A stretch of 64,000 bases of DNA from Nemertoderma westbladi (taxonomy: Eukaryota; Animalia; Xenacoelomorpha), in NCBI GenBank assembly GCA_032718475.1, contig JAUCBJ010006441.1:31380-95379 (forward strand), in the 5' to 3' direction. The position numbers and the translations under genes are program-made. Shown here one piece after another: positions 12,681 through 52,250 of the stretch. Position 1 is the first letter of the stretch, and every line of letters starts with the position of its first letter. The notes under the pieces were generated by a model that did no database searches, was not told where the DNA came from, and was given only the letters and a program-made list of their open reading frames with translations.

Positions 12681-12812
12681 CTGTAGACGGTGACACAGAA
12701 CCATTTGAAGTGTTATGGGGCGTCCTCCAGGGAGACGCACTTGCACCATTCTTGTTCATAATTGTTGTTGACTATGTTCTAAGCATGTCCTTAGATCATC
12801 ATAATGGTGATA
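12679..12812 (+). mobile_element. Internal fragment (~130 bp) of RTE family 2 within the Academ element
   Basis: Near-identical to 33298-33430 (ggtgacacagaaccatttgaagtgttatggggc...). No tail. Confidence 0.85.
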
Positions 12813-15390: not shown

Positions 15391-15433
15391 GCCATCTAAA
15401 CTTAATTTTCGGGAGTTGGCAGGTAGACTAGTA

Positions 15434-17113: not shown

Positions 17114-18278
17114 TCCGACCTTCTCACCAAAACAATAAACTCTAAGTAAGCGAATATATATTGCAGTATCGGTCTCTTATAACCGGTGAGGCAGAAAACA
17201 GTCTACGAATGGACAAACTTCGATAAAACAAAATCCCGCGCAGCGAATCCTAACATCAGGCTGACTCACTGATGGACTAAGGGGCTCGTATACTTTGCCG
17301 CGGTGTGATTTATATGGTTGGGATAGAGAGATGCTAGCTAGGTGCAGAGATGTCTAACTAGCGGGCAAAGCGCAGTACGGACAAAATTATTTTATATATT
17401 TTGAGGTGTAAATAATTTCTAACGCGCGTGTGTCTTGGTTCTAAACAGTCAAAGTCAGTTTTGCTCCTTCACATATATAATTACTGGGTCCGGTGTGCAT
17501 TTTACAAATATTCTAATTTTGTAACTTGTAGGTCCAATACTCACGAATGATAAGGCTCCTTCCCCTTTTGTGTATTTCCAGGACTCAAATTCAGGCATAA
17601 GGTTAATACTACGCCCAGAATTCGGCAATTTAATTTACCAGGTCCCTAATACTAAGAAGAAATGTGTTAGTTTACTACCGTAGGCGTACTGTTACAAATA
17701 GCTAGCCTGGTATTCTTATCTAGAATTTTGGTTGCCTAGATGGGCACGGCAACTTCCTAACAGAATGTTGGCGGGGACATGGTAGATGTTAGTATCCCTA
17801 AATAGCCTCAATTTATTTGCGCCTAGTTGTAAACTGCCCTACCGCCTGAACGGTACAATCCTAATTCAGGTAAAACACAGTAACCCTTCTAGCCTACAAG
17901 TTCAAATGCAATGGACACCGTTGTACTACAAACAGTCACAGACGCACCTATACTTAGCAAGAGTTAGGCGTACAGTTTGCTGCACCCTACCAATGTGTAT
18001 GCCTTGTAACGGTGTGCCTGCGTCCTATCTGTGTACTAGTATCTCTGCCTGATCTCCTCTCCCCGTAGGAATATGAAGGTCTACTGCGGGTTTTTTCTCT
18101 GAATTAAGACAGTACGGTCCCTAGATGTAAATTTTAGCGCACAGCGTGTCACTACCTCTACCTTCGATCTTTGGTCTTACACTTAGGTAGCAAGGCATTG
18201 AACGCTGTCTAACCTTCAGGCGATGGGCGAATAACTCAAGAATGATATTGCGGGTTGTCTCCTCCTACATTCCTCAGA

Positions 18279-18620
18279 TGTTCCCGTTCATTGCTGTGGC
18301 CCGATGTTTAGCCTGCCATCCTGTCCCTCAGTTAGGTTCACCGTGGTAAAACATGATAGGAAAAGGGCAGATGTAACAAGTATTTCTAACTTTTATTACA
18401 GAATTAAACAATAACTATTATACAATAAATGTAACAAGAGTGAAGATAGATAACTAATGAACAAATCGCACCCTTTTATAGCAAATTTGTGCTGCAATCA
18501 ATCGAGATAAATCTAGATTGTTCTATGAGTTCTAATAGGTTTTTAAAGATAACTATTGGTCCAGCGAACACGTATCTTGCACGACATTGGTTACTATCTA
18601 ATAACTGCAATCCTATTGGT
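18279..18620 (-). promoter_or_regulatory. LTR promoter, R and U5 region (paralog at 25091-~25450)
   Basis: On the minus strand: three CCAAT boxes ~30 bp apart (18619, 18590, 18559), TATAAAA (18480-18474), AATAAA (18397-18392) and terminus GGGAACA at 18279. Confidence 0.7.
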
Positions 18621-18686
18621 TAATCTACCTTGAGCAAATGCAATTTAATTTGTAGCGGTTAATTTAAATGAGTTGAAACTTAGCAC

Positions 18687-18770
18687 AAAAAATGATTCGC
18701 ACCTACTAGGATTCGAACTCAATACCTACTACACGAATTTCCAACGCTTAACCAACTGAGCTACTGAACC
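18687..18770 (-). ncRNA. tRNA-like Pol III unit within the BEL LTR (copy 1)
   Basis: A-box TAGCTCAGTTGG, B-box GAGTTCGAATCC and a T6 terminator. No convincing anticodon or acceptor stem. Confidence 0.6.
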
Positions 18771-19419
18771 ACTTGAACAATGTTATACAAATAGATATAC
18801 TGAATGCAAATGAGGACTTAATGTAATCTTTATAGCAAAGTTAATTCGAACAAAATAAAATTTTGAAATCCACGGCATTTATGAGAATATAATTCTATAC
18901 CGCTCCATGAAAACAGGATATTATCGTGCATAAAATATACGGTTTTCACCAATAATAAATCAAATTATAGAATACTTGGGACGTACTTACATATTTACAA
19001 ATTAAATCTCAACAATAATACCTCTACATAATAATTCGATAGAAAAATAATTACAAATTCAAACTCTACGTATTTAAGGCTTTATTAAGTAAGTACAATA
19101 TAAATCTAAATTATATTCACCAAAATAAATCTATTGCATCTCAAATATTGCATAAATTCAAACAATCACAAATACTAATACTACTTAAATATAAAACAAA
19201 TTGCATAAGTTCGGAATAATTTCAAATAATCACAAGAAAGGCTCACAAGTCTTCCGTCTGCTCTTGCCTTCTATTTACTGCGAATACAAATACTGCTTCT
19301 TTATAAAATATAAATTGCATAATATTCGAAACAATAAATTGCGTAAGTTTGGAATGACTACAAATATAGCACTTTCTAAATATAAATCTTTCTAAATGTA
19401 AATCTTTACTAAATATAGA

Positions 19420-19795
19420 TATAAACTGCATAAGTTTAGAACAATATAAACTGCATAAGTTTAGAACAATATAAACTGCAAAAGTTTAGAACAATATAAA
19501 CTGCATAAGTTTAGAACAATATAAACTGCATAAGTTTAGAACAATATAAACTGCATAAGTTTAGAACAATATAAACTCTTTAGGCATCTCAAATATAAAA
19601 TATAAATCTTTCAAATATAAATTCCTTCTAAATACAAAACTTCCTGAATTTCAAAATTGGAACAATACAAATACATAAGTTTAGAACAATGTAAATTGCA
19701 TAAATTTAGAATAATATAAATTGCATAAATTTAGAATAATATAAATTGCATAAATTTAGAACAATATAAATTGCATAAATTTAGAGCAATATAAA
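19420..19795. repeat. 25-bp AT-rich minisatellite downstream of ORF2 in the BEL element
   Basis: Unit aatataaactgcataagtttagaac. The paralog at ~26220-26470 has fewer copies. Confidence 0.85.
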
Positions 19796-19919
19796 TTTTA
19801 AACAATACAAATTACATAAACAATTCAATTTACATGAACAATACAAAGAAAAACAATACATAAGACAAACAATACATAAGAAAGGCTCACGAGTCTTCCG
19901 TCCACCCTTGCCCTCCCTT

Positions 19920-21350
19920 TTACCGCTTGGTGGATCGAGCCCTGCCGCGTCCTCGAAAACTGCGTACAGGTGACTTTGCTCGCGGTATGGGACTTGTGGG
20001 GCGAGTCACTAGTTTACCTTGGACGTTGGGAGATGGTGCGACCATTTCCTCACATGCTCGTCTATTAGGCATCCCAAATCCTCGACCGACTCCTCGTGAT
20101 CGACCGGTTGTGTCTACCGTTGGTAAAACGTCTGGGAACGCGCGGGAAGCGGACGACGCAGACCCAAGAGAAACTTGCGCCCCCTTTTATCAGCTGGTAT
20201 GTGTCCTAATCCTCCTTGCGGTTCTCTGGGAAGTGACACCGTATCTCGAGTAACTCGAATAGTCGGTTCACTACCCTTTCTTTCTTCAATATTTATAGTT
20301 TTCTTTAGTTGTTGGCTCACTTTCTGAACCCTTATAATCCTGTTCTGTCGAATACGCTCGCTCGTGCGTTTATGGTACAAGGCGGCTCGGTACGCCCATG
20401 CGACGGTTAACCAAGCTCCCTTATTTCGCTTTTCCGTTCGGAAACGATCAAATTCACCATATGTGATACGATTAAACATTTTGGGCAAAGTTTATTCTTT
20501 CGAAAATTTTTGGTGTCATCTCCTTAGCTGAAGTATAATCGTGTGACGTCCAATGGTAAGGTATGCTCGCGAGTCTTCCGCCCCATTCTTCCATCTCTCC
20601 TTCCTCGAAAGCCTTATAGGCTCTGTATAGGCTAAGAGCTTCTTTCTTTTCGCGGGTTGACTGAGTCACCTCTTCCAGCGTAAGTTCAAATGCATCGGGT
20701 TCAACAATCTTAGGTGGACAAACGACAATTTCTCCCACCTTTGGTCCACACATAGCAAATGAATGATATGGATTCGATAAAGGATACCCTCCTTCCTGGT
20801 AGCGTAGTTGTTGATGGTTCGAACACCTCGCCAATATCGGTTCGGGATTTTCTTTATTCAAACGCATCGGAATCGCATTTCGTTGTTCGCGCATACAAGC
20901 ACCGCATTGATAATAAAGTTTATAAACTGAAAATGCTTCCTTTGTTTCTCTATCGTCCCCTCGAGTTCGTCTGTAAAGATGCATTCCATCGAATTCATCG
21001 CGTACCGCGGGCATAGGTTCGTGCGCCTTCAGGTATTGCATAGTATGATACAAATGACTAATTTTGGTATCGGGATCTTCGCTAATATCTCCCGTGTCAC
21101 ATAAAGCGTTGTACGGGTAAAGTTCATTGAAGGTTTTGCGTAAACTTTCTATTCTTTCATTTAACGCATTTTGCCTTCTCTTTAATACGTTCGAGTCATA
21201 TTTGGTCTTTGCGAGTTTCGCTGTACTTTCTGATAAATCCTTTATTCCAAATATGGTGTAATCCTTAGCTCCAAATCGTTCGAATGGCGCTGCTGCTTCC
21301 TCTTGGATATCATATCCCCATCTCGGCTCTCCATGTATCCCTTTCGCCAT
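19920..21350 (-). pseudogene. BEL-A accessory ORF2, copy 1; exonuclease and knuckle region deleted
   Basis: MAKGIHGEPRWG...INFAQNV is joined directly to NRITYGEF (~2.2 kb missing relative to 29455-27258). Ends RSFRGRGRARSTKR-stop. Confidence 0.85.
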
Positions 21351-22012
21351 TATTAGAAGTGTAGTTACATAATCATTGCTACTAGAGGGAATACAACAGA
21401 GTTTATTGTTAGTTGTGAGGAGATGTGAGAGTTTTCGTCTGCCCTTTTGGCTCGACAACGCTCTAACCTCCTACCCATAGCCTAAGATCTAAGGTTTCTT
21501 TAATGACACGCTGTTTCTTATCTAAAATTTTTTGCCGAAATAAAAACGATTTTGGGCTAAACTGGCTGTGAGTCTAAAATACTCACTTTTTGATCCCAAA
21601 CTATTATCAGAAAATAAGCAATCAAGAGTTAGTAATAAATATAGGGAAGTCTATTATTTGACGTAACTTATTGAAACAAGACCGTGTAAATTTTATTAAA
21701 ATTTAAGAAAGGCTCGCGAGTCTTCCGTTCTCTTGTTTCTCTAATTTTAAGTTCCACCCGACTGTACCCTGAAATCTATTCACTGGAGAAAATTTTAAAA
21801 TTTTTTCAAATCCAAATGGATTGTCTAAAATTTCGAAAATGTCTCAATATTGTGAGTTTCAAGTAGAATTCCATTTCTTATACCTACAAATCCCGCTCCT
21901 ATGTGACACATAAGGGTACTACCCTCAATGTTCACATATAAAGACAATGGAATTTTACCGCTGTCTTTACTACAGTGTACAGGTACGTGGAAATCTATTT
22001 GTAAACTCCTTA

Positions 22013-23849
22013 CTATTTACTAACATTAGTTGGAGACTTGTAATCTCCAGACTTGTTTCGCGTCTCTTCAAGAAGTACGAGACGTTGAGTCGGTCTGTCT
22101 ACTGTACGACCGTCAATTGTCCGTACAGTCACAGTTCTTGTCACTCCATCCATAGATGGATGTGTGTCTAAAATTACACCTGTTATCCAGAAGCGTCTTT
22201 TTAGATTCACTTCTGCTAACAGCACATGATCTCCCGCTCTTAAAGCGCGAGTTTTGTTGTACCAACTAGTTCTGGCAGAAATAGAGGGCAAATAATGGTT
22301 TTGCCATATTTCCCAGAATTTGTTAGCCAGTAGTTGCGTGATTTTCCACGCTTTTCTACCGTAGCTATCGCCTTATATTGGAATAGAAATAGGCATTAAT
22401 GTAGTCGGTGCCTGCATTAGCAGGTGTGCCGGTGTTAAAGCAAACTGGGATTGTTTGTCATCGGGTACTAATACTATTGGTCTAGTATTTAGTATTGCCT
22501 CGATTTCAACAAACAATGTTGTCAGTTGGTCGTCTGTCAAGATGTGGTTTACTGGAATTACTTTTGCCATGGCTGTTTTTATAGATCTAATCAATCTCTC
22601 CCAGACTCCGCCTCTCCATGGACTGTCTGGAGGATTAAACTTCCAAACAATCTTGTAAGGACGTAGTTCGTTTGAGATTTGATCATGATCTAATTTCTTA
22701 AAGGCTCTAGCAATTTCATTTCGAGCACCAACAAAGTTTGTACCTTGGTCTGAGTACAAGCATTTTACTAGTCCACGTCTAGCGATAAATCGCCGCAATG
22801 CTAGTATAAAGGCGTTGGTGGAAAGATCCATCACACGTTCAATATGGACTGCCCTACTGGACATGCATGTGAAAATCAGTCCCCAGCGTTTCACTAATAT
22901 ACGTCCACGTTTCGTATGTATGGGACCAAAGCAGTCAATTCCAGTCTATGTGAAAGGTGGTCTGAATGCCTGTAGTCGTGCTTGTGGAAGTTCACTCATT
23001 TCTTGGGTACTTATTCTAGAATGTACCTTTTTACAAATAATACACATACGCGTCACTGAACTTAGTGCTTTACTGGGTCTAATTAATACAAATCTTGTAC
23101 GTAAGTAGGAAAGACAGTGGTGTCTTCCAGCGTGTTTCAGATGTAAATGTGCGTCCAGTATCATTGCACGTTGTAATTCGTGATGTTGTGGTATTATTAT
23201 TGGGTACCTAAAATCAGTATTAAAGTCAAAGTTTTGAAGCCGAGATTTATGACAAATTAAGCCATTATAAATTATCGGACTCCAACTCAATATTGGTGAC
23301 GACTTGATTGGTTGACCTTGACTTATAGATGTGAATTCGCGTGCGAAATATCGTAATTGGTAATGGCGAATTAATTTAATTTCACATCTGTCAATCTCAG
23401 TCAATGTGAGTCGACGTGTAAAGTCGCGTTTGCCTTTAACGTACTGTACAAAACTTACAATCCACGCTAATTTTCGGCACGCGTTTGTCCAAGAATCTGT
23501 CAAATTTACAATACGGTCGACGTAAGTATTTATGACGTCATCAGGTAAGTCAATGGAGAATTTGGAAGGTTTTGTTTTACTAGATGGGCCCACGAGTCCG
23601 CCGGTAAGTATTCCCTTGTTGACTGTTGATCCGTCCGGGTCTACAAGTAATTTGTCCTTCTTCGTCTTCTTACCTTGATTGTCATTACTTTGTGTATCGA
23701 TTCGTAATGGTGGTTTTAACTCTATGGGATCGCTGGGTTTCGGTAAATTTGTTTTTCTGCCGATATTAATCCCAGGTCTCACCGTAGGTTGTAAGGTTGG
23801 TATGTCTCTTGAGCGTCAAGTAACACCTGTATTTACATTAGCGTAGGTA
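22013..23849 (-). pseudogene. pol: BEL-A pol 3' part (integrase), copy 1
   Basis: HHCC zinc finger (HLKH...CIIC), IDCFGP, YSDQGTNF and WRGGVWER, with stops and frameshifts. Confidence 0.92.
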
Positions 23850-25514
23850 TTGGAAGAGACAGTAACAAAATACCCTGCAATATCCTACTGTAAAGTTTGT
23901 GAATCAAATCATAATCCGACCTTCTCACCAAAACAGTAAACTCTAAGTAAGCGAATATATATTGCAGTATTTTGTCTCTTAAAACCGGTGAGGCAGAAAA
24001 CAGTCTACGAACGGACAAACTTCGATAAAACAAAATCCCGCGCAGCGAATCCTAAAATCAGGCTGACTCGCTGACGGATTAAGGGGCTCGTATACTTTGC
24101 CGCGGTGTGATTTATATGGTTGGGATAGAGACGCTAGCTAGGTGCAGAGATCTAGAGATGTCTAACTAGCGGGCAAAGCGCAGTACGGACAAAAGTTAAT
24201 TTTATATATTTTGAGGTGTAAATAATTTCTAACGCGCGTGTGTCTTAATTCTAAACAGTCAAAGTCAGTTTTGCTCCTTCATATATATAATTACTGGGTC
24301 CGGTGTACATTTTACGAATATTCTAATTTTTGTAACTTGTAGGTCCAATACTCACGAATGATAAGGCTCCTTCCCCTTTCATGTATTTCCAGGACTCAAA
24401 TTCAGGCATAAGGTTAATACTACGCCCAGAATTCGGCAATTTAATTTACCAGGTCCCTAATACTAAGAAGAAATGTGTTAGTTTACTACGGTAGGCGTAC
24501 AGTTACTAATAGCTAGCCTCGTGTTCCTATCTAGAATTTTGGTTGCCTAGATGGGTACGGCAACTTCCTAACAGAATGTTGGCGGGGACACGGTAGATGT
24601 TAGTATCCCTAAATAGCCTCAATTTATTTTGCGCCTAGTGTAAACTGCCCTACCGCCTGAACGGTACAATCCCAATTCAGGTAAAACACAGTAACCCTCC
24701 TGGCCTACAAGTTCTAATGCAATGGACACCGTTGTACTACAAATAGTCACAGACGCACCTGCACTTAGCAAGAGTTAGGCGTACAGTTTGCTGCACCCTA
24801 CCAATGTGTATGCCTTGTACCGGTGTGCCTACGTCCTATCTGTGTACTAGTATCTCTGCCTGATCTCCTCTCCCCCGTAGGAATATGAAGGTCTACTGCG
24901 GGTTTTCTCTGAATTAAGACGGTACGGTCCCTAGATGTAATTTTTAGCGCACAGCGTGTCACTACCTCTACCTTCGATCTTTGGTCTTATACTTAGGTAG
25001 CAAGGCATTGAACGCTGTCTAACCTTTCAGGCGATGGGCGAATAACTCAAGAATGATATTGTGGGTTGTCTCCTGTCTACATTCCTCAGATGTTCCCGTT
25101 CATTGCTGTGGCCCGATGTTTAGCCTGCCATCCTGTCCCTCAATTAAGTTCACCGTGGTAAAACATGATAGAAAAACAGATGTAACAAGTATTTCTAACT
25201 TTATTACAGAATATACATAAACGTAACAAGAAACTAATAGATAACTAATAACTAAGTGAAAGAAGAAATAGAAATCGATAACTAATGAATGAAATCGCAC
25301 CTTTTATAGCAAAGTTGTGCTGCAATCAATCGAGAAAATTCTCGATTGTTCTATGAGTTCTAATAGGTTTTTAAAGATAACTATTGGTCCAGCGAATATA
25401 TAACTTGCACGACATTGGTTACTATCTAATAACTGCAATCCCATTGGTTAATCTATTTCGAGCAAATGCAATTTAATTTGTAGCGGTCAATTTAAATGAG
25501 TTGAAACTCTGCAC

Positions 25515-25599
25515 AAAAAATAATTCGCACCTACAAGGATTCGAACTCAATACCTACTACATATAATTTCCAACGCTTTACCGACTGAGCTACTGAACC
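25515..25599 (-). ncRNA. tRNA-like Pol III unit within the BEL LTR (copy 2)
   Basis: A-box TAGCTCAGTCGG, B-box GAGTTCGAATCC and a T6 terminator. Confidence 0.6.
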
Positions 25600-26618
25600 A
25601 CTTGAATAATCATCGTACAAATAGATATAGTAAATACAAATGAGGACTTAATGTAATCTTTATAACAAAGTTAATTCGAATAAAATAAAATTTTGAAAAT
25701 CCACGGCATTTAGAGAATATAATTCTATACCGCTCCATGAAAACAGGATATTATCGTGCATAAAATATACGGTTTTCACCAATACTAAATCAAATTATGG
25801 AATACTTGGGATGTACTTACATATTTACAAATTAAATCTCAACAATAATACCTCTACATAATAATTCGATACAAAAATAATTACAAATTCAAACTTTACG
25901 TATTTAAGGCTTTATTAAGTAAGTACAATATAAATCTAAATTAAATTCACCAAAATAAATCTATTGCATCTCAAATATTGCATAAATTCAAACAATCACA
26001 AATACTAATACTACTTAAACATAAACAAATTGCATAAGTTCGGATAATTTCAAATAAATCACAAGAAAGGCTCACAAGTCTTCCGTCTGCTCTTGCCTTC
26101 TATTTACTGTAAATACAAATACTGCTTCTTTATAAAATATAAATTGCATAATATTCGAAACAATAAATTGCGTAAGTTTGGAATGACTACAAATATAGCA
26201 CTTTCTAAATATAAATCTTTACTAAATTGCATAAGTTTAGAATAATACTGTATAAGTTTAGAATAATATAAACTCCTTTGCATCTCAAATATGAAATATA
26301 AATCTTTCAAATATAAGTTCCTTCTAAATATAAACTTTCTAAATTTCATAAATTCGGAACAATACAAATACATAAATTTATAACAATGTAAATTGCATAA
26401 ATTTAGAATAATATAAATTGCATAAACTTAGAACAATATAAATTGCATAAATTTAGAGCAATATAAATTTTAAACAATACAAATTACATAAATAATTCAA
26501 TTTACATAAACAATTTGATTTACCTAAACAATGCATAAAACAATACATAAAACAAACATAAAAGAAACAATTCACAAGAAAGGCTCACGAGTCTTCCGTC
26601 CACTCCTTCCTTCCCGCT

Positions 26619-29600
26619 TCAACGCTTAGCGGATCGAGCTCTGCCGCGTCCTCGAAAACTGCGTATCGGCGATTTAGCTCGTGATATGGGACTTGTGGGG
26701 CGAGCCACTGGTTTACTTTGGACGTTGGGAGATGGTACAACCATTTCCTCACATATTCGTCTCTTTGTCATCCCAAATCCTCGTCAAATCCCTCGTGACC
26801 GATCTGTTGTATCTACCGCTGGTAAAACGTCTGGGAACGCGCGGGAAGCGGACGACGCAGACCCAAGAGAAGCTTGCGCCCCCTTTTGATCAGCTGGTAT
26901 ATGTCCCGATCCTCCTTGCGGTTCTCTGGGAAGCTAAACCGTATCCCGAGTAATTCGAATAGTCGGTTCGTATCCCCTTCGTTCTTCAACGTTGATAGTT
27001 TTCTTTAACTGTTGGCCCACTTTCTGAACCCTTATGATCCTGTGCTGTCCGTCCTCCCGAGGGTGACGTGCAGATACGCGCCACCGGAGTAGCTGGTATG
27101 TTGGTCGCCTCTAGGACCTCCTCTTCCTCGAATACGCTCGCTCGTATACGTTTATGGTAGAACGCGGCTCGGTACGCCCATGCGACAGTTAACCAAGCTC
27201 CCTTGTTCCGCTTTTCCGTTCGGAACCGATTAAATTCACCATAGGTGATACGATTAACGACTTTCTGGAAATTCCATGTATTCTTATTGTCAGGGTGTAT
27301 CTGCAACAAATATTCGCGCACAACTCGGAATCCGCTATCGTGAGGCAAAATATCAACTACCTCGATGAGTTCATCATATTGCGGCATAGCGGAGATATAT
27401 CCTTCCGACATCATAGTTTGAGGATTTACCGCCCAAAATCCAAGATGCGCTCTCATCGGGAACCGTCTTCTTTGCGCCGATACGTGTTCGTCAGCCAAAT
27501 CTTCCCAATCATCAAATAGTTTTCGCACGAGTTTTACAGATTCGTGTTCGTAAGGTATGTCTCTCAGTTGGCATTCAGATGCTCGATGTCCCTTTATATT
27601 GCAGTAGGTGCATTGAGCCATAAATCTCCAGCAAGTATAAAACGTATGGGACCCTTGATCTCCACACCATCCACAGATTAGTTGAGTTGTAGTAATGTGC
27701 TTTCCACTGCACTTTGTCGAATGATGTCCAGCGACGCCACATTTACCACACATCGTATTAGCAGGGTACCACACTCGCTCATATATAAGATCGCCAATGG
27801 GTCGAGCGCTTCCTCCCACACTATAGTCGTAATCGTCTGGATCAATAGGTTGGTATGTTTCAGAAGGTTGTATGCAAACTACAGCATCTGTTGCTTCTAG
27901 TTGTCGAATCTCCATCTGAGATTTCTTCGGGAGGTTCCTTTCAATCTCAAGAAGTTCCTCTAAAGGATCATCGATGGCCGTCGTTACTTCGAAATCATCA
28001 CCTAAGTGACCGATAGGCGCACGCGTCTGCCGTGATTCGTCCGTAAGCTCCACGATACGTTCTCCTTTATAGGGTAACAATGTAAACATAGATGGTCTTT
28101 CGATAAGAGATCCCGCACAGCGAAGATACACGTCTCGAAATATACTAAATCCTGCTCGAGTGAAGGTCGGAATTGTAGAAGGGTTCGAGAAACCGTCTAA
28201 ACACATCGGTATGAATTCTCCCTTCCGCGTAGAATGTATGATCTTCTCCGAGGCAAAGTGGATGTCTTTTAAGAGTCTGAGACACAATGTCGGCGACTAA
28301 GCAAACATTCACTGATGACTCTATCGCTAAATAATATTGTAGTACCGCTCTTGGAGGTGAAGTAATAGCCCAATATACGCATCCTCTCCATTTGAGCTGT
28401 GATTCAAACTCATTTATATCTGGAGTATCACCTTCTCCATACGTTTCGATATACATTGTTCTTTTACTTTCCTTGTAATCCCAATTAAACATCAAGTAGG
28501 AAATATATCCAGTTCCGGTTTTCTGAGTATCATACTCACGGAAGTATCCTTGTTCTATAGACCACAGTATAAGAGGTCGAGTGTCAACGTAAGGTGTCGG
28601 TAATCGGTCGTCACTGTCCGACATGCCAGCGAAGTCGCTAATTAAGTCCTCTCTTACTCCTGATCCAATCTTTACAACAGTTTTATCTAAAATCATATTT
28701 CTCACCGTCTTTGGTAACATTCTAGCATCGATATTGCAAGCCTGGTCCATTTTCTTTACTATATTTGTGATGAAATGGTGCCGCTTTGTAGTTCCTGGAG
28801 GTATCGGCATTCAATTGTCACTCCTTTGTCTACTGAAAACGTGCAAAACTCCGTCTGCCGCTCTAATTTGTATAGTCTTGGAGGTTAGACTCTGCTGATG
28901 GCTGCCGCCCTCGTTATCATAAAACATGTAACCGTTTTCCTGAAACGATCTAAACGTCCTATTCCATTCGTCCAATAATTCTTCCGAAGGTTGCCAAATC
29001 TTCTCTATGTCTTTCTCGTCCTCGAAACGAATGACTTTACCTTGCCAGTCCGCAGCGATATCTGTATCCGACTCAAAGGTTCCTGTTCCAATCCATAAGC
29101 GAATTGTTTTGGTTAAATATCCTTTCAGGTTACTCGGGGCTATATCAGCGCCAGCTCTATCTAGTTCCCTAAAGTCTTGAATATGAGGCGGAACATTATG
29201 CACGACCTTTTGCGTAATATGTCTACGTAAATCATATATCTTAACCATATCGCTTAGAACAACTGCAGGAAGAAACTCTAAGTTCGAAATGATTTCCGGA
29301 TGATCCACAATAGGTATTTCATACGTTGTATCTTGTCGAACTGGTATACTAATAGGGAAATTGAGTGTCGTACTCAATGGTTTCGTAGTTGAAGTACTAT
29401 ACGGTTGCATTTCTCTTGTCCTTTCCGGGGATGCAATCTGTAGTCTCTGAATAACGTTTTGAGCAAAGTTTATACTCTCGAAAACTTCCGGTGTCATCTC
29501 CTTAGCTGAAGTTTGATCGTGTGACGTCCAATGGTAAGGTAGGCTCGCGAGTCTTCCGCCCCATTCTTCCATCTCACCTTTCTCGAAAGCCTTGTAGGCT

Positions 29601-30328
29601 CTGTATAGGCTAAGAGCTTCTTTCTTTTCGCGGGTTGACTGAGTCGCCTCGTCCAGCGTAAGTTCGAATACATCGGGTTCAACAACCTTAGGTGGGTAAA
29701 CGACAATTTATCCCGCCTTTGGTCCAGTCATAGCGAATGAATGATATGGATTCGATAAAGGATACCCTCCTTCCTGGTAGCGTAGTTGTTGATGGTTCGA
29801 ACACCTCGCCAATATCGCTTCGGGATTTTCCTTATTTAAACGCATTGGAATCGCATTTCGTTGTTCGCGCATACAAGCACCGCATTGATAATAAAGTTTA
29901 TAAACTGAAAATGCTTCCTTTGTTTCTCTATCGTCCCCTCGAGTTCGTCTGTAAAGATGCATTCCATCGAATTCATCGCGTACCGCGGGCATAGGTTCGT
30001 GTGCCTTTAGGTATTGCATAGTATGATACAAACGACTAATTTCGGTATCGGGATCTTCGCTAATATCTCCTGTATCACATAAAGCGTCGTACGGGTAAAG
30101 TTCATTGAAGGTTTTGCGTAAACTTTCGATTCTTTCATTTAATGCATTTTGCCTTCTCTTTAATACATTCGAGTCATATTTCGTCTTTGCGAGTTTCGCT
30201 GTACTTTCTGATAAATCCTTTATTCCAAATATAGTGTAATCCTTAGCTCCAAATCGTTCGAATGGCGCTGCTGCTTCCTCTTGGATATCATATCCCCATC
30301 TCGGCTCTCCTTGTATCCCCTTCGCCAT
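26619..30328 (-). pseudogene. BEL-A accessory ORF2 (~1230 codons): unknown N-terminal domain, DEDDy-like 3'-5' exonuclease, three CCHC-type knuckles, Arg-rich tail
   Basis: Stitched from ORFs 29708-30328, 28811-29572, 28145-28810 and 26986-28287 plus a tail ending at stop 26619. Exonuclease-like motifs FYDNEG, LPKTVRNMILDKTVVKIGSGVREDL, YVDTR and QYYLAIES. Knuckles CGKCGVAGHHSTKC, CGWCGDQGSHTFYTC and CTYCNIKGHRASEC. Confidence 0.8.
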
Positions 30329-30990
30329 TATTAGAGGTATGGTTACATAATCATACTACTAGAGGGAATACAACAGAGTTTATTGTTAGTTGTGAGGAGA
30401 TGTGAGAGTTTTCGTCTGCCCTTTTGGCTCGACAACGCTCTAACCTCCTACCCATAGCCTAAGATCTAGGGTTTCTTTAATGACACGCTGCTTCTTATCT
30501 AAAATTTTTGCCGAAATAAAAACGATTTTGGGCTAAACTGGCTGTGAGTCTAAAATACTCACTTTTTTGATCCCAAACTATTATCAGAAAATAAGCAATC
30601 AAGAGTTAGTAATAAATATAGGGAAGTCTATTATTTGACGTAACTTATTGAAACAAGACCGTGTAAAATTTAATTAAAATTTTAAGAAAGGCTCGCGAGT
30701 CTTCCTTTCTTGTTTCTCTAATTTTAAGTTCCACCCGACTGTACCCTGAAATCTATTCACTGGAGAAATTTTTTAAAAATTTTTCAAATCCAAATGGATT
30801 GTCTAAAATTTCGAAAATGTCTCAATATTGTGAGTTCCAAGTAGAATTCCATTTCTTATACCTACAAATCCCGCTCCTATGTGACACATAAGGGTACTAC
30901 CCTCAATGTTCACATATAAAGACAATGGAATTTTACCGCTGTCCTTACTATGGTGTACAGGTATGTGGAAATCTATTTGTAAACTCCTTA

Positions 30991-33900
30991 CTATTTACTA
31001 ACATTTGTTGGAGACTTGTAATCTCCAGACTTGTTTCGCATCTCTTCAAGAAGTACGAGACGTTGTGTCGGTCTGTCTACTGTACGACTGTCAATTGTCC
31101 GTACAGTCACAGTTCTTGTCACTCCATCCATAGATGGATGTGTGTCTAAAATTACACCTGTTATCCAGAAGCGTCTTTTTAGATTCACTTCTGCCAACAG
31201 CACGTGATCTCCCGCTCTTAGAGCGCGAGTTTTGTTGTACCAAGTTGTTCTGGCAGAAATAGAGGGCAAATAGTGATTTTGCCATATTTCCCAGAATTTG
31301 TTAGCCAGTAGTTGCGTGATTTTCCACGCCTTTCTACCGTAGCTATCGCCTTCTATGGGAATAGAAATAGGCATTAATGTGGTCGGTGCCTGCATAAGCA
31401 GGTGTGCCGGTGTCAAAGCAAACTGGGATTGTTTGTCATCGGGTACTAATACTATTGGTCTAGTATTTAGTATTGCCTCGATTTCAACAAACAATGTTGT
31501 CAGTTGGTCGTCTGTCAAGATGTGGTTTACTGGAATTACTTTTGCCATGGCTGTTTTTATAGATCTAATCAATCTCTCCCAGACTCCGCCTCTCCATGGA
31601 CTATCTGGAGGATTAAACTTCCAAACAATCTTGTAAGGACGTAGTTCATTTGAGATTTGATCATGATCTAATTTCTTAAAGGCTCTAGCAATTTCATTTC
31701 GAGCACCAACAAAGTTTGTACCTTGATCTGAGTACAAGCATTTTACTAGTCCGCGTCTAGCGATAAATCGCCGCAATGCTAGTATAAAGGCGTTGGTGGA
31801 AAGATCCATCACACGTTCAATATGAACTGTCCTACTGGACATGCATGTGAAAATCAGTCCCCAGCGTTTTACTACTGTAGTATACGTCCACGTTTTGTAT
31901 GTATAGGACCAAAGCAGTCAATTCCAGTCTCTGTGAAAGGTGGTCTGAATGCATGTAGTCGTGCTTGTGGAAGTTCACTCATTTCTTGGGTACTTATTCT
32001 AGAATGTACCTTTTTACAAATAATACACATACGCGTCACTGAACTTAACGCTTTACTGGGTCTAATTAATACAAATCTTGTACGTAAGTATGAAAGACAG
32101 TGGTGTCTTCCATCGTGTTTCAGATGTAAATGTGCGTCCAGTATCATTGCACGTTGTAATTCGTGATGTTGCGGTATTATTATTGGGTACCTAAAATCAG
32201 TATTAAAGTCAATGTTTTGAAGCCGAGATTTATGACAAATTAAGCCATTATAAATAATCGGACTCCAACTCAATATTGGTGACGACTTGATTGGTTGACC
32301 TTGACTTATAGATGTGAATTCGCGCGCGAAATATCGTAATTGATAATGGCGAATTAATTTAATTTCACATCTGTCAATCTCAGTCAATGTGAGTCGATGT
32401 GTAAAGTCGCGTTTGCCTTTAACGTATTGCACAAAACGTACAATCCACGCTAATTTTCGGCACGCGTTGGTCCAAGAATCTGTCAAATTTACAATACGGT
32501 CGACGTAAGTATTTGTGACGTCATCAGGTAAGTCATAGGAGAATTTGGAAGGTTTTGTTTTACTAGATGGGCCCACGAGTCCGCCGGTAAGTATTCCCTT
32601 GTTGACTGTTGATCCGTCCGGGTCTACAAGTAATTTGTCCTTCTTCGTCTTCTTACCAATAATGACAGGGTATTGCCTGATAACTTTATAGAAGTAAAAG
32701 TGTCTGAGTCTGTACTCCCAGATATTCCCATTGGCGATATCTCCTTTGCAGAAGTGAAGGCTGCTGCAAAGAGCATTAAGACCAATCGTGCCAGTGGAGT
32801 AGATGGTGTTCCCCCTGAGGTCTTTAAAATACCTGAGTGTTTAAAGCTCATCTATCCCATCATAGTAGACATGTACCGTACAACAAGAGTCCCACAAGAA
32901 ATGAAAACAAATAAGTTGGTGCCAGTTCCCAAGAAGGGCAACCTAACACTCTATGGTTCTTTTCGGGGATTCTCATTGATCTCGATTGCTGCAAAACTAT
33001 ACAATAGAATTCTATTAAATCGCATCAGGGATCCCATTGAGAGACTGCTACGTGGAAATCAGAATGGGTTCCGTAAAGGTCGTGGGACCATGGAGCCCAT
33101 TTTGGCACTTAGAAGGATAATTGAAGAGTTATCAAAAAAGAAAGACAGGCATCTGGCTGTTATCTTTGTTGACTTCTTCAAGGCCTTTGATTCAGTCTCT
33201 CGCTCACGTATGTTCAGCATACTTTCATTATATGGGATTCCTGATGAAATTATTGCAGCAATCAGATCAGTATACGATGGTTCGACAACATTTGTGTCTA
33301 CTGTTGATGGTGACACAGAACCATTTGAAGTGTTATGGGGCGTCCGCCAAGGAGACACACTTGCACCATTCTTGTTCATTATTGTGGTTGACTATGTTCT
33401 ACGCATGTCCTTAGATCATCATAATGATGATGGGGTGATGATAACTCCACCTACTGGCTCCAGAAGTCGAGGAAATCCTGCCAAGTACCTAACTGATCTA
33501 GACTTTGCTGATGACTTAGGAGTACTCTCAGAATCATTAGAGGGAGCCCAGCGGCTCCTCAGCTCATTAGAACATGCTGCTTCTAGTGTTGGTCTTTTTA
33601 TTAACTCCAGAAAGACCAAAATTCTGACAGTTAACTTTGAAAGTCCTCAGCAAGTCTCTGATCGGATGAGCATAAGCTCAAAGGATGGTATGCTTGAGCA
33701 TGTGGACGACTTCTGTTACCTGGGATCATGGATCCGGAAGTCAGGTGAGGACCTTCGAATACGTAAGGGAAAGGCATGGGCAGCCTTGAATAGGCTTTCC
33801 AGGATTTGGAAGTCACCTAGAATTAATCGGAAACTTAAGGTCCGATTATTCAGAGCAGCAGTAGTTCCAGTACTCCTCTACGGGAGTCCATGCTGGGCTC

Positions 33901-36900
33901 TAACTGCTGAGGACACCAAATCTCTGGATGGCACATTCACAAGAATGCTACGCCGGGTACATTGTGTCAAGTACAATGCACACATCTCCAACCAGACACT
34001 ATATAACATTGGAGGTGTCTCATTGGTTCCCCCAAGCTTGACACTAGAACAAAATCGCCTCCGCTTTGCAGGACATTGCTTTCGCCGTGAGGACCAGCCA
34101 GTGCATAATCTTGTACATTGGCAGCCTCATGGAGTGAATAAGCATGGTGGACAGCCCATGACTTTCTTGAGACGCATCTTAAAGGACACTGACCTTAAAG
34201 ATGCGGATGATCTAGCAAATGTCATGGGTGATAGGGAGTTGTGGCGGTGCAATTTTGTTGACAAGCCGGCACAGCATTCTTAAAAATGCAGCTGCAATGC
34301 AGCATGCCGATCCTAGTAGTAGTAGTTCTTACCTTGATTGTCAGTACTTTGTGTGTCGATCCCTAATGGTGGTTTTAACTCTATGGGATCACTGGGTTTC
34401 GGTAAATTTGATTTTCTGCCGATATTAATCCCAGGTCTCACCGTAGGTTGTAAGGTTGGTATGTCTCTTGAGCGTAAAGTAACACCTGTATTTACATTAG
34501 CGTAGGTACTACCCACATCTGTAATACATGAGGTTTCACTGTACTTATGGTTACTCAAGGGTGTCAAGTTTGGTAGTTTGTTAATAGAAGGCCGCTCCAA
34601 TAGGGAAACTGCGGCTTTACTATGTGTCGCTACGTTACTAATGTCTGGTAGATCATCTTGTGAAATGTCTGGTAAAATGTTTCGCGGAACTTCCGGCGAA
34701 ACGTCTAGTGACATGTCTGGCAAAATGTCTAGTTGACCGTCTAGTAACGTGTCTGGTTTTGCGTCTGGTAACGAGTCTAGTTGACCGTCTGGCGATACGT
34801 CTGGTAACATGTCTGGTTGACCGTCTGGCGATACGTCTGGTTGAGAAAGGCTCGCAAGTCTTCCTGCCCTAACTTTGTGAGTTATATTCTTCCATTTCGC
34901 CTTTGGTTTCTTCTTAAGTTTCGCCGTTGTCTTTTTCTTTGCTTTACCTTTCTTTGGTTTTTTAATTTCGGCGTCCTTAGGAATAGTATTAGACTTGTTA
35001 TCGTAAAGTGGCGGCCAGTGTTGTGTCGCTCTTTGTAAGAATTGTGGTCCGTGTTGCCAAAATTTCTTGTTTTCCGGTTTACAGAATTCCTCAGGCATCA
35101 TTCCTCGTGACGCAATATCAGCTGGATTTTGTGATCCGGGACAATGTCGCCAATCTTCTTTTATTGAACGGTCTAGAATTTCTGCACGACGGTTAGCTAC
35201 GAATGTCTTGAATTCAAGTGTGTCGTTGTTTATATAAAATAAAACTAACGTCGCGTCAGTCCAATAAAATATCTGTAAACTTGACTGTAGTTCCGTCTGT
35301 ATGAGGTTTACAATGGTCGTTGACAGAGTTGCGGCTTGTAGCTCAGCGCGTGGTGTCGTCATATACTTAGTAGGCATTGTTTTAGCCTTAGAAGTAATGA
35401 GCGATACATCAAACTCATCTGAGTCTACTTGTCTGCGCAAATACGCTGTCACACCAAAGCCGTTGTCACTGGCGTCTGAAAAACAATGTAATTCTAAGTT
35501 GTCAGGAAATGTCGTCTGTAATGGAAAGTACACCCGGGGTATGGAATAATCCTCTAGCGAAGATAATTGCGCCTCCCAAGTCTTCCATAAGTCCACTTGT
35601 TCGGATGAGATCGGTTCGTCCCATGTCAGTCCATCTTTCCAAATACTGCGCATATATATTCGCGCTTGCAGTATTATTGGGCTGATGAAACCTAAGGGGT
35701 CGAACAGTCTGCTTAGTTTCGACAAGCAAGACCTCTTTGTCAGAGAATCCCCTTCAGCGTCCAGTTTTACTTTCACTCGAAAGTTGTCTGTGTTCGGGTC
35801 CCAAAATAGTCCCAACACCTTGGTCGTCGGCAGTGGTTCGAACTCTAAGTCAATATCACCACCCCCACGTTCAGTCGTTTCGAATGAATTTACCAATTCG
35901 GTGCTGTTTGAGGCAAACTTAGTGAGGTTAAAACCTCCGCCTGCTAAACAGTCCCGTAATTGATGTGCTACTGTGATAGCACTTTCTACTGTGTCACAAC
36001 TCTGTAATCCATCGTCCACATAAAAGTCTCGTTCTACGATCCGGATTACCTCTGGGTCATACATATGTTTCTGATCCCTAGCGGTCTGTTTTAGGGCGAA
36101 CATAGTGCAGTTTGGGCTGTCCCTGGCACCGAAAACGCGAACTTGCATTTGGTAAGTCGCCGGTGGTTGACTTAAGTCTCCATCCGGGTACCAGAGGAAC
36201 CTCAAACTGTCTCTGTCTCGCTCTAACACTCGCACTTGGTGAAACATCGCTTCTACGTCACAAGTAAATGCTACTTGGCGCTGACGGAAGCGCATAATCA
36301 CCCCCATGAGATAATTATTCATGTTTGGTCCATCCATCAACTCACTGTTGAGAGACATTCCTTCAAACAGGGCCGCGCAGTCGTTAACTACGCGTACTTT
36401 ATCAGGTTTGTCGGGGTGTCTCACGTAGTGATGTGGCAAATAGTATGTCTGGTCTGTCACAATCTCTGGGTTTGTCATCCTGATAGCGTACCCTTTTGTC
36501 AAATACGTCTCCATCTGAGTATTGTACTGCAGATGGGCTTTCTCGTCCTTTAATAAACGTTGTCGTATTGAGTGTAGACGTCTTAAGGCTAGCGGATAAT
36601 TGTTGATAAGTTTAGGGCTTTGGCTACGCCATAGCATCCCTACCTCATAATGTCCGTCTTTCGTCTGGCGGATAGTATCTTCCATGATCTTCAAAGATTG
36701 TTTCTCTTGTTCCGACATACACGGTTCGTAACTACCGGGTTCTGCTGTATCTTGTTCTAACCACCTGATAGTTTTCTCTGTTAATTCTTTGTCTAATTCA
36801 GCTTGTTCCACTTGACAATTCTTTAATGTGTCGACATCGATATTGACGGGCATCGTTAATGTTATTGGTGTAGATAGACTCGCAAGCCTTCTGGCGTTAT

Positions 36901-37609
36901 CATTTGTCGTCGATGGAACCTCTGCCTGACTCGTCTTCTTCTCAATCTCTATACTAACCTTGTGGATTGGCTGCTCTTTGTGACTTATCATATTTGCTAC
37001 ACACGTCGTACCTGTAACGTTGTCGTGTTTTGTCGAACGTAGTGTAGTATAGTCTATGTCAGGTGAAAAGGAATGAATCGAAGTTGTAGTTAGTAAACTA
37101 CATGTACTTTGTACATCGTCTTCCTCATCACTTATATCCAGTGTGAGCACAGGCGCTCGAGTATACCACCCTATCGGAGTTCTACAGGCGTAAGCATTTC
37201 CCGCTACGACTACCAATGGTCTGGTTTCCCACACTTGATGTAGATTGAATTGGTCCATCCCGATCAGCATTGCTACCGACCGATAGTTGACAGGACATTC
37301 AGGTACACCAAGGTGTCTGAAATACTTACGGTCCTCTAAGGATTGCTCCGGCACTGGACCCAGTAGGTTACTAAAGTCCTTGGTGGCCGCAAAAGTCAAA
37401 TCCTTAAAGGGTAACAAAGACCTCTCCTTTTCGCTATGTTGCGATTTCGGAAGAAGAGTGTCCAAGTTTAACTTAACTCGTGTCACTGGTATTGCACGTT
37501 GTCCATGCATAGCGCTACTGATGAGGCCTGTTAGGCCGAAACGTGCGTATAGCGCTGGTTCAACCCCCGGTGACGCGCTCCCATTTTTTCCACTTCTGAA
37601 CAAACCCAT
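30991..37609 (-). pseudogene. pol: BEL-A pol (RT, RNase H, integrase) interrupted by an RTE insertion
   Basis: YYLPHH, KVRVVNDC, DVEAMFHQV, FYVDD, FDPLG, HCFSDAS, PRAEL, WTDA and NPADIASRG. Integrase at 30991-32576. Confidence 0.95.
32658..34325 (+). mobile_element. 5'-truncated RTE-clade LINE, family 2, with an intact 536-aa RT ORF
   Basis: QNGFR, FVDFFKAFDSV, GVRQGD and FADD motifs, a (TAG)n tail, and an 8-bp TSD ttcttacc (32650-32657 and 34326-34333). The empty site is visible at ~23667. Confidence 0.96.
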
Positions 37610-37629
37610 AATATTACACCATTAATATT

Positions 37630-40600
37630 ATGAGAGATACCATTCGCCAGACCGCGAATGGCCACTACGAAGTAGGCATGTTGTGGCGCAATGGACAACC
37701 TAAGCTTGTTAACAACTACCCGCTTGATTTGAGGCGACTCAAATCAATAAGGCAGCGATTGTTGCGTGATGAGACGGCCCATATGCAATACAATGCACAA
37801 CTTCAGACGTATCTCCAAAAGGGATACGCCATTAGGATGTTAAATCCCGAGGTAACCACAGATCAGACATATTACCTGCCACATCCTTTTGTTCGACACC
37901 CGGACAAACCTGGCAAGGTGCGTGTAGTCAACGACTGCGCTGAGCTTTACCAAGGGATGTCTATGAACAGCGAACTGATGGACGGGCCGAATATGAATAA
38001 TTACCTCATGAAGGCGGGGTAGCTCAGTTGGTTGAGCGCCGGGCCTGCAATCTAATGGTTGTAGGTTCAGCCCCGCCAGGGTCCACTCAGCCTTTCATCC
38101 ACTGGGGTCGGTAAAATGAGTGCCAGTTAAATAACTGGGAGCAAATCTTGGGATAGGAGTAGCGCCCACCCCTACCCTCGGGTAGCAGCTATCGAAAGAG
38201 GAGCCTTCGGGTCGCCTCCGGCTTCGGCCGACTGTTTGCTTTTTTTTTTACCTCATGGGAGTCCTAATGCGTTTTAGACAACGCAAAGTGGCTTTCACCT
38301 ATGACGTAGAGGCCATGTTTCACCAGGTTAAGGCTTTGGAGCGGGACAGGGACAGTTTGAGGTTTCTTTGGTATCCGGACGGAAATTTAGAACTTCCGCC
38401 AGAAACTTACCAAATGCAGGTAAGAGTTTTCGGAGCCAGGGACAGCCCCAACTGCACCATGTATGCCTTAAAGCAAACTGCATTGGACAGACAAGGCCAA
38501 TTTGACCCAGAAGTAGTTCGGACAGTGGAATGAGACTTCTACATGGATGACGGCCTCAAGAGTTGTGACACTCTGGAGCGCGCTACGACCGTAGCACACC
38601 AACTCCAAGATTGTCTCGCTGAGGGCGGATTTCACCTTACGAAGTTTGCTTCCAACAAACCCGAACTAGTGAACTCATTCGACCCGACGGATCGCAGTGG
38701 AGGAGACTTGGACTTAGACCTAGAACCTCTACCTACGACCAAGGTATTAGGACTTAGTTGGGACCCGAACACCGACAATTTTAGGGTATGTGTAAGGTCC
38801 AACGGACAGATTCGACATCTCACTAAGAGGACTTGCTTATCGACCATGAGTTGATTGTATGACCCATTGTGTTTCATTAGTCCAGTGATCCTACATGCTG
38901 GGATCATACTCCGCAGCATTTGGCAAGCCGGACTGGAATGGGTTAGCTGAGCAATGGAGGGACTGGGAAGCCCAACTGACGTTCTTACAAGACTATACCA
39001 TACCAAGGGTATACTTTCCTTTGCAGACCACCTTTCCTGCCGATTTAGAGCTTCACAGCTTCAGTGACGCTAGTAAGGATGGACTGGGGTTACTTTATAC
39101 CTTAGACGACAAGTGACATTGGACAGCTACGAAGTGTCTCTCGTTACTTCAAGGGCTAGAACAATGCCATTGAAGTATATGACTGTACCTCATGGAGAGC
39201 TGCACGCCGGGACGATATCCACTGATATTGTCAGTCTAGTTCAACGCGAGCTGGAGGCTAACTTGAAGGTCACATATTGGACGGATGCGACGTTGGTACT
39301 TTGGTACATAAACAACGAAACATTCAAGTTCAAGACTTTCATAGCCAACAGACGGGCTGAAATATTAGACCGGTCACTCAAACAAGATTGGCGTCACTGT
39401 CCAGGGAAGCTGAACCCAGCTGACATCGCGTCACGGGAGATGCTACCAATTGACTTTTGTAAACCGGACAATAAATCTTTTTGGTTTAGAGGACCCGATT
39501 TCCTTCAGCGACCATCAGACGAATGGCCACCGTTATTCGACGCGACAACTAATACCATACCGGAGGGTGCCGAGATAAAAATCGACACAGTTGTCAAATC
39601 TAAAGCGAAAGCCAATGCTAAGGTCAAGGGGAAACAAGGACGGACTAAATCTGATGACCTGGACGCTAGACCTGACATTACGCCAGATGTCTCACCAGAC
39701 TCTCGACCAGACGTTCGTACGAATCTTTCACCAGATGTTTCACGGGAGATTTCACCAGACGTTTCACCGGATTGTTCACCAGATTACTCGCCAGATTATT
39801 CACCAGAAGTGACACCAGATTGTTCTCTGGATTATTCGCCAGATTGTTTTATGGAACTCTTGACAGATTGTCTACCGGACGTCTCACCAGACTTTCCACC
39901 AGACATCTCAACAGACTGTCCACTAGACTTTAGACCAGACATTCTGACAGAAGCTACGCCAGACTTTCTTTGGGACTGACGACAGGACATTTCGCCGGAT
40001 GTTCCGCGCTATGTCTCACCAGATATCTCACCAGACTGTTCACCGGACGCCTCACCAGACTGTCTACTAGACTTTCCACTAGACGACTCGATGGAAATAA
40101 AAGACTTGAACTCTAAGGACGCAATGAATTCATTGGAGCGGACTAGTACACACCCATTAGGTATTAAAAACTTACCGCATTTGACTTCCTTGGATGACAA
40201 AGGTGTGGCCACAGCGATCACACTCCGCTCAAGGAAAATACTTGACTTACCGTCTACAGGTAAACGTGTGACTAAGGTTAGGAAGCTTACGAGCTCACAG
40301 GAACACACTAGTACTGTAGAGTTGAAACCGTTACTGCCAGTCAATTCACTAGGTGTGGACGGTAAAGGTAAGACCGTGGAGATTGAAATACTTGAGGACT
40401 CCGACAAACCTATTGCACAAAGGGAGACACCTACCGGAAGGCCCGTGGGCCTACCAAGTCCAAACAAGTATCCACATTTTGACTATACCTTACCTGAGGA
40501 CGTCACCAACACTTATGTTGACAGGATAGTAAACCTAACTAGATCATGGACTGACGCGTGACGCAAGTTAGCATGGCTCAAACGTTTGAGACAATATGCC

Positions 40601-41997: not shown

Positions 41998-42720
41998 AGA
42001 TGTGGGACCCTTGATGGCCGCCACATAGACTTACCGTATTTTAGTAATTTAGTAGTTTGTATTACTGTATGTGCATTTTGTATTCCTCTTCACTGTAGAT
42101 AGAGACAGCGGTGGAATTCCATTGTCTTTATAAGTGAACATGGAGGGTAGTACCCTTATGTATCACATAGGAGCGGGATTGTGTGTACAGTAGGAATGGA
42201 ATTCTTTCAAACAATTTTTCAAAAATTATTAGACAAATCCATTTGGTTGGATTTAAATTTAAGAAAAATGAATCTCGAGTGAATGCGAATTCTAGAATAC
42301 AGCTAGATAAAAAATTAAAATTGGGGAGGACAAGAGCGGATGGAAGGCTTGCGAGCCTACCGATAATTTTTTTTGGAAAAGAAAATCGGCCTTGTTCTAC
42401 GTAGTCGTGTCTACTATTATTTTAGACCGAATTAATTCTTGACTGCACTATTTTTCTTTGGGAAGTAGTTTGGGAAATTAAAAGGTGAGTATTTTAGACT
42501 CGCGGCAAGTTTACCCAGAATTCGTTTTTTATCGGCACATTTTTTGGATTAGGAGCCAGTGCGAAATCACACGAAACCCGAAGTCATTAGGCAAATGGGT
42601 AGGGGTTTTAGAGCAAAGTTGAGCCAAAAGCCGACAAACTCTAAGTCTCCTCACATCTAACCTCTATTTTGTGCTTCATCTAGTAGAAACGTAACGATAT
42701 GTAACCATATATACACGTAT

Positions 42721-52000: not shown

Positions 52001-52250
52001 ACTACAATGCAATACAATAAGAACCAACTACAATGCAATACAATAAGAACCAACTACAATGCAATACAATAAGAACCAACTACAATGCAATACAATAAGA
52101 ACCAACTACAATGCAATACAATAAGAACCAACTACAATGCAATACAATAAGAACCAACTACAATGCAATACAATAAGAACCAACTACAATGCAATACAAT
52201 AAGAACCAACTACAATGCAATACAATAAGAACCAACTACAATACAATACA
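49081..52250. repeat. A/C-rich satellite of 16-bp and 26-bp units
   Basis: Units gaaccaactacaataa (16 bp) and gaaccaactacaatgcaatacaataa (26 bp). Confidence 0.97.

Follow-up and report, generated by a model that had tools for sequence, protein, structure and literature searches.

Retroelements that carry a DEDDy-type 3'-5' exonuclease gene as cargo are already known. The available text of a 2017 study (PMC5408684) describes such genes as third open reading frames (ORF3s) of the rotifer elements Juno and Vesta (Gypsy-type long terminal repeat, LTR, elements) and of Athena/Terminon elements, with a DEED motif and no activity shown, and the available portion of another paper describes the DnaQ-like domain as an accessory domain that is well known (PMC6338049). 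For belpaoviruses, the accessible parts of two further papers report ORF3 diversity and env-like genes (PMC5718144, PMC11599104). Here we describe an accessory gene, ORF2, of a BEL/Pao (Belpaoviridae) element present as three truncated copies of one lineage (A2, A1 and B, the last from a diverged subfamily) in a 64,000-nucleotide (nt) stretch of repeat-rich animal DNA (Nemertoderma westbladi, contig JAUCBJ010006441.1, positions 31,380 to 95,379; hereafter the window). The features new with respect to the systems above are the BEL/Pao carrier, the fusion to zinc knuckles, the splice signals and a repeated hairpin-like motif (Table 1).

Like the rotifer ORF3s as presented in that available text, ORF2 is a sense extra ORF behind pol, is DEDDy-type by prediction, has no membrane segment and shows one acidic residue changed from D to E. 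Unlike them, it is carried by BEL/Pao, spans ~1,230 codons and includes a 425-residue N-terminus without known family, three knuckles and a basic tail, and its D-to-E change falls at the last position (D-E-D-y-E) instead of giving DEED, a comparison made by description and not by sequence. A preliminary description of this DNA had treated a DEDDy gene as something not to be expected on an LTR element, which the rotifer Gypsy-type and Athena elements of PMC5408684, as far as its available text goes, had already contradicted. No BEL/Pao exonuclease or knuckle ORF was found in the literature searched, which excluded subscription journals, Repbase/Dfam descriptions and the supplements of the rotifer paper; the matches were confined to this paper and to reviews that cite it. 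ORF2 adds a second case that looks independent, from another LTR superfamily and under selection as strong as that on the RNase H region, which suggests a recurrent recruitment of RNA-end nucleases by LTR elements.

The carrier is a BEL/Pao element, with reverse transcriptase (RT), RNase H and integrase in this order and with the Pao-specific Pfam domains Peptidase_A17 (expectation value, E, 9e-43) and DUF5641 (E 1.5e-21), next to Integrase_H2C2 and a YVDD motif in the RT. A1 is ~96% identical to A2, and the two stand in tandem around a common LTR-like repeat. Neither gag nor a 5' end was found in any of the three copies within the window, and A2 is also without a 5' LTR. ORF2 starts 662 nt behind pol in A2 and 0.66-0.72 kilobases (kb) behind the pol stop across the three copies. 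Given the three copies, the common spacer and the selection detailed below, ORF2 is shown to be an accessory gene of the element under purifying selection, as the preliminary description had proposed, and a chance neighbour was ruled out.

Evolutionarily, the 628 codons of ORF2 comparable between A2 and B are 65% identical in amino acids, with saturated synonymous sites (proportion of synonymous differences, pS, 0.77) and a non-synonymous divergence (dN) of 0.26, in keeping with the strong conservation despite many silent changes first noted there. The ratio of dN to synonymous divergence (dN/dS), which had been proposed as a check, has a bootstrap upper bound of 0.12, i.e., is not near 1. Over the same pair of copies, the RNase H region is 58% identical (dN 0.37) and the integrase 75% (dN 0.14). 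Among the variant places listed (40 of 72 overall), third codon positions make up 27 of 40 across 28290-28930 (p 1e-5) and 24 of 36 in the nuclease part missing from B (p 4e-5). Overall, the pattern of substitutions indicates that ORF2 has been functional through the history of this multicopy BEL/Pao family.

The individual copies are decayed to different degrees. A sense ORF of ~1,230 codons behind the integrase in both A copies and in B, as initially described, was recovered in position and linkage, but A1 and B hold parts of it only, and the frame of A2 is not uninterrupted: it contains four stops (29708-10, 28811-13, 26934-36 and 26784-86) and two frameshifts, one close to 28165 and the other in the interval 27190-27050. 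A1 is without the counterpart of A2 27257-29453, i.e., the whole nuclease and the knuckles. B is without that of 28361-28859 (ExoII block and YVDTR), retains the ExoI and ExoIII motifs, and is cut near 44760 by a satellite of 46 base pairs, before the knuckles. For the N-terminal half as well as for ExoI and ExoIII there is support from three copies; neither the ExoII block nor the knuckles share it, each occurring a single time in the window (in A2). Four public DNA runs belonging to three studies yielded contigs of other copies that cover all 30 bins of 23800-34400; they included one of 1,887 nt spanning 28383-30269 (158 differences, zero gaps) and a second covering 27593-27942 (28 differences, zero gaps), and both the ExoII block and the knuckles are covered gap-free by such contigs. 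These other copies differ from the window copy at the nuclease-domain stop, which suggests that the lesions of A2 reflect decay of this copy.

The central part of ORF2 very probably adopts a DEDDy fold of the WRN/EXD2/Mut-7 type, a call resting on profile comparisons with shuffle controls. All motifs on which the preliminary description had based this assignment lie where it had placed them: FYDNEG at 28924-28907, LPKTVRNMILDKTVVKIGSGVREDL at 28717-28643, YVDTR at 28591 and QYYLAIES at 28339-28316. As in WRN, EXD2 and Mut-7 (Nibbler; PF01612), the predicted order is pre-ExoI strand, ExoI, Q strand, then the ExoII block, vD, C-x-x-W and finally Y-x3-acid; unlike these proteins, ORF2 shares only ~15-20% identity with the family, has insertions of ~14, ~33 and ~35 residues, falls below Pfam detection and is borne by a mobile element. 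The available text on EXD2 gives its active site as D108, E110, D171, Y242 and D246 (PMC6648332).

Family profiles were built from fetched proteins. One made from 66 divergent WRN/EXD2/Mut-7-like domains (the weaker-scoring part of a set of 120, including WRN, EXD2 and Mut-7) matched the nuclease region with E 1.8e-5 alone and 0.024 among the 1,278 tiles of the window, where the region came first (next unrelated tile, 9.6; 0 of 2,000 shuffles). With the hidden Markov model (HMM) of 120 bacterial EXD2-like proteins the region again came out on top of the 1,278 tiles, although at E 5 (7 of 2,000 shuffles), and a global alignment gave z 3.9 and 3.4 (0 of 400 shuffles), vs. a non-significant 0.6 and 0.8 for the NrnC and RNase D profiles. 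Nine family blocks taken in order reached z 6.8 (0 of 300 shuffles), the top tile scoring 44.5 and the next 26.6 of 1,266. Over ~700 positions, the pre-ExoI, ExoII and vDL blocks each ranked first, in the correct order (K-x-G-x-G-x3-D of ExoII being 1 of 697), and the Q strand third. In an unguided MAFFT alignment with 49 of 240 relatives, D471, E473 and the following Q fell in invariant columns. For ExoIII, the candidate Y666-x3-E670 ranked 4 of 701 against 11 named or eukaryotic relatives, vs. 24 for the alternative Y630-x3-D634, which has canonical spacing; Y666-x3-E670 is the better of the two Y-x3-D/E after ExoII, follows the sole C-x-x-W and is invariant in B. Furthermore, the longest A2/B-identical runs in 658 columns are those of ExoI (18 residues) and ExoIII (14).

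Several results weigh against this assignment. Pfam, one of the checks that the preliminary description had proposed, returned no exonuclease match at E up to 10, and the PF01612 cut-off was not reached. Neither 5.8 billion proteins (word search) nor 1.84 billion representatives (phmmer) contained a relative, and none was found in metagenome and viral contigs, plasmids or phages, collections that are poor in animal transposon ORFs; an Atlas search with the frame of B was likewise blank. A phmmer search of PDB had EXD2 as the second of three matches (E 1.5, on the ExoII block), 201 prokaryote genomes gave four weak matches (E 0.02-0.07), and hhalign with three sequences gave a probability of 0.7%. 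The signal of the 66-domain HMM derives from the ExoII block alone, the best nine-block chain put ExoI and ExoIII at other places, MAFFT was unsure in the last third of the domain and also chose another ExoIII, and a wide profile placed ExoI only 15th (of 717) and ExoIII 47th of ~700, where the last D is replaced by a non-canonical E. As for structure, which had also been proposed as a check, an unseeded AlphaFold model had a predicted local distance difference test score (pLDDT) of 35 and no match in either fold search. A family-seeded model reached pLDDT 67 (84-91 at ExoI/ExoII, 36-71 in the last third) and resembled DEDDy nucleases (Z 8-10, root-mean-square deviation 4-5), a circular comparison of little weight with a weak ExoIII third. 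The WRN/EXD-type call stands on the profile tests and not on Pfam or an independent structure, ExoI and ExoIII being weak when taken alone.

Two alternatives bear on these data. A selected gene of another fold, whose likeness to exonucleases is partly chance or restricted to homology of the ExoII half, would account for the blank standard searches and the window-corrected E of only 0.024; with the ordered blocks still at z 2.6 after removal of ExoII (3 of 300 shuffles), the pre-ExoI and vDL blocks ranking first, and ExoI and ExoIII invariant between A and B, we consider it improbable. The second keeps the fold and makes ORF2 an RNA-binding adaptor, its catalysis lost or dispensable as in EXD1 and Egalitarian, which together with the knuckles would grip stem-loops and localize or package element RNA. 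The non-canonical last acid, the large insertions and the dispersed, sense-oriented hairpins described below fit such an adaptor, and Egalitarian binds stem-loop signals through its exonuclease-homology domain with the putative catalytic residues dispensable (PMC13186709, available text). Egalitarian and EXD1 are alike to ORF2 in (predicted) fold family, and Egalitarian, per the same partial source, reads short RNA stem-loops; unlike ORF2, they are host proteins that carry LOTUS-like or Lsm domains and lack knuckles, and ORF2 keeps its acidic residues under selection. Since the most invariant stretches between A and B are the two predicted active-site motifs, and the sole difference in the D561 codon among the variant places listed is at the third position, we regard the adaptor as doubtful and the predicted nuclease as probably active.

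The first ~425 residues of the protein had no match to any family in Pfam or the protein searches. Of the three CCHC knuckles initially reported, two are canonical (C-x2-C-x4-H-x4-C at 27709-27750 and 27571-27612), but the middle one (27631-27675) has x5 before H, and Pfam zf-CCHC stayed under its cut-off (E 0.003); Atlas leads for this region are CCHC clusters with scores up to 0.87 (<0.9). For the basic tail, the RGRGR frame proved correct (21 silent and 23 replacement differences between A1 and A2, vs. 5-6 and 37-39 in the other frames), although it is weakly constrained. The nuclease might instead proofread or trim complementary DNA for the RT of an unusually long element (>13 kb without gag), given that DNA is the substrate of the WRN, EXD2 and polymerase exonuclease domains (PMC6648332 and PMC5408684, available text). 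This seems very unlikely, however, as the domain is not fused to Pol, the knuckles and tail point to RNA and no polymerase-specific feature was matched.

ORF2 also appears to have its own expression signals. In A2, the spacer contains a GTGAGT donor at 30562 (inside a short inverted repeat), a CTAAC branch site at 30389, a YAG acceptor at 30361 and a start-stop ATG-TAA at 30348. All three spacers have only one GTGAGT and, with it, a CTAAC and a YAG at aligned places, plus the start-stop ATG-TAA, with ~200 nt between donor and acceptor and the acceptor ~30-40 nt before the ORF2 ATG. Spacer identity between A and B amounts to 26-29 of 30 bases at 30945-30871 and 25 of 30 around 30560, though synonymous sites are saturated. 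Because donor, branch and acceptor signals are conserved in all three spacers, ORF2 is likely translated from its own spliced messenger RNA (mRNA), apart from Gag-Pol, with transcription driven either by the 5' LTR or by a promoter within the element. ORF2 shares the position behind pol and the predicted spliced expression with env-like ORFs of BEL/Pao elements, but has predicted nucleic-acid-binding domains in place of a hydrophobic anchor. The hydropathy scan of ORF2 detected no clear membrane segment, as the preliminary description had stated (most hydrophobic 19-mer, 1.39 on the Kyte-Doolittle scale), and an env-like ORF was ruled out, with no signal peptide or membrane anchor by hydropathy. 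Separately, a 77-nt non-coding block just behind the pol stop (30867-30943 vs. 42104-42180) is 94% identical between subfamilies and foldable into two hairpins with no compensatory change; it is a candidate promoter or RNA element.

The copies further share a ~20-nt near-palindrome, found at 17 sites of the window between 19234 and 44589 (eight in A2, five in A1, four in B) and nowhere else in the window. All sites have the orientation of the element, they fall in both coding and non-coding sequence, and those of A2 are spaced 0.5-2.3 kb apart. A motif search returned 18 matches at 13 places vs. 0.04 expected, and all 35 matches of a motif model fall within BEL copies. Each of the four B sites has an aligned A2 site, and at one of these the DNA motif is kept with most amino acids changed. 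When the motif is modelled as a hairpin of seven pairs and a 4-nt loop, pairing holds in 89% of cells and two pairs change on both sides; 2 of 500 shuffles reached the covariation score, which relatedness inflates, and wobble pairs point to both strands. Set against an RNA hairpin are its weak folding (z -1.1 to +0.6) and the fact that it is the best fold at four of four B sites and only two of eight A2 sites, so that a DNA palindrome for a dimeric protein is possible. Several motif sites follow purine-rich runs, and repeated plus-strand priming sites are accordingly another reading. In general, CCHC knuckles prefer exposed G residues in loops of this kind.

Separate spliced expression, as predicted here, also resembles that of retroviral accessory genes, and Mut-7/Nibbler belongs to the matching family, so that ORF2 might encode a diffusible suppressor which degrades or over-trims host Piwi-interacting RNAs (piRNAs) or small interfering RNAs in trans, with the hairpins as Gag packaging signals unrelated to it; Gag knuckles usually read such loops. 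Because methylation usually makes the 3' ends of piRNAs resistant to trimming of this kind, we find this unlikely.

Our favoured reading, held tentatively and at somewhat less than even confidence, is that ORF2 encodes a separately expressed, active knuckle-exonuclease of the WRN/EXD2/Mut-7 type that is tethered to element RNA and trims 3' ends in the ribonucleoprotein. In this scheme, the selected, pol-linked gene would be expressed from its own spliced mRNA, and the product would fold with D471, E473, D561, Y666 and E670 (replacing the last D) as its active site. Knuckles and basic tail would bind element RNA, for which the G-rich tetraloops of the repeated hairpin are plausible putative sites, and the tethered nuclease might trim element RNA, primers or paired silencing small RNAs, speculatively helping the element to escape silencing or to mature its RNA. 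The rotifer DEDDy ORFs, without clear copy-number advantage in the available text of PMC5408684, speak against such a benefit. A more specific version, which we rate as improbable, would be a self-addressed anti-silencing system in which hairpin tags every 1-2 kb direct the spliced knuckle-exonuclease to strip or trim silencing small RNAs from tagged RNA only; if true, this would be an animal RNA counterpart of self-addressed counter-defence. Such cargo is relevant to the question of whether animal elements encode counter-measures to piRNA silencing, and the knuckle fusion, splice signals and repeated hairpin lead to testable predictions on the function of this cargo.

Table 1. Features of the three BEL/Pao copies and of ORF2 (positions in the window).
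Feature	Positions	Strand	Details
Copy A2	~23914-37621	minus	
A2 pol	30991..37621	minus	RT, RNase H/Peptidase_A17, integrase; 5' part missing; interrupted at ~32657-34326 by a long interspersed nuclear element (LINE)
Pol-ORF2 spacer, A2	30329..30990	minus	A/B-conserved blocks
ORF2, A2	26619..30328	minus	~1,230 codons; ATG 30328, stop 26619-26621
ORF2 N-terminal part	29050..30328	minus	~425 codons; 62-66% identical to B; CxxC pair kept in B
Predicted DEDDy-type 3'-5' exonuclease domain	28280..29050	minus	With insertions; from profile tests; pre-ExoI strand 29047; D471/E473 (28918, 28912); D561 (28648); Y666/E670 (28333, 28321); alternative ExoIII candidate Y630/D634
Three zinc knuckles	27571..27750	minus	
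Basic C-terminal tail	26619..27050	minus	Low complexity; ends RGRGR
LTR-like repeat behind ORF2, A2	23914..26060	minus	Followed by TGG-starting stretch like a primer-binding site (PBS), 23914-23930
Eight ~20-nt motifs, A2	26063..36894	minus	26063, 26576, 28010, 29536, 30684, 32564, 34843, 36871
Copy A1	17112..23850	minus	3' pol and spacer; ORF2, from which a large internal part is deleted (21350-19920); LTR-like repeat; PBS-like stretch at 17112-17129
Copy B (diverged subfamily)	37624..44760	plus	Pol, spacer, truncated ORF2 from ATG 42724, middle block deleted
Four ~20-nt motifs, B		plus	40434, 42340, 43515, 44566

Behind ORF2, A1 and A2 both have a ~2.1-kb repeat and then the TGG-starting stretch, with no CA end before it. 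Within this LTR-like repeat lies what we take to be a transfer RNA (tRNA)-like stretch with A-box- and B-box-like motifs (25520-25600 and 18690-18775, minus strand), which neither ARAGORN nor Rfam called, no tRNA or Rfam match being obtained. In the 3' untranslated region of the element, an AT-rich 25-nt unit is repeated in tandem, with a copy number that varies (19350-19870, 26160-26520), and a low-complexity P-D-x-x linker from RNase H to integrase (34510-34860, 39640-40100) is kept in length and not in sequence. A1 is joined into part of an integrase (16200-17110, minus strand) from an unrelated third BEL element.

Other repeats in the window include LINE RT fragments at 32657-34326 (plus strand, inserted in A2 pol), 10058-11005 and 46300-47840, and a tRNA-derived short interspersed nuclear element (SINE) inserted in B pol (38013-38250), whose central domain presumably resembles Nin/Deu SINEs. 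Inverted repeats of ~1 kb (8730-9706 and 12839-13825) flank a 443-codon ORF without Pfam match (region 8687-15430), likely a DNA transposon, and a Gypsy-like gag (DUF7041) lies at 13922-15088. Satellites occupy 1-1766, 44760-45830, 49090-52500 and 56036-64000, the last with long ORFs on both strands that are artefacts of the repeat; their units measure ~46 nt or 26 nt, or are longer and degenerate.

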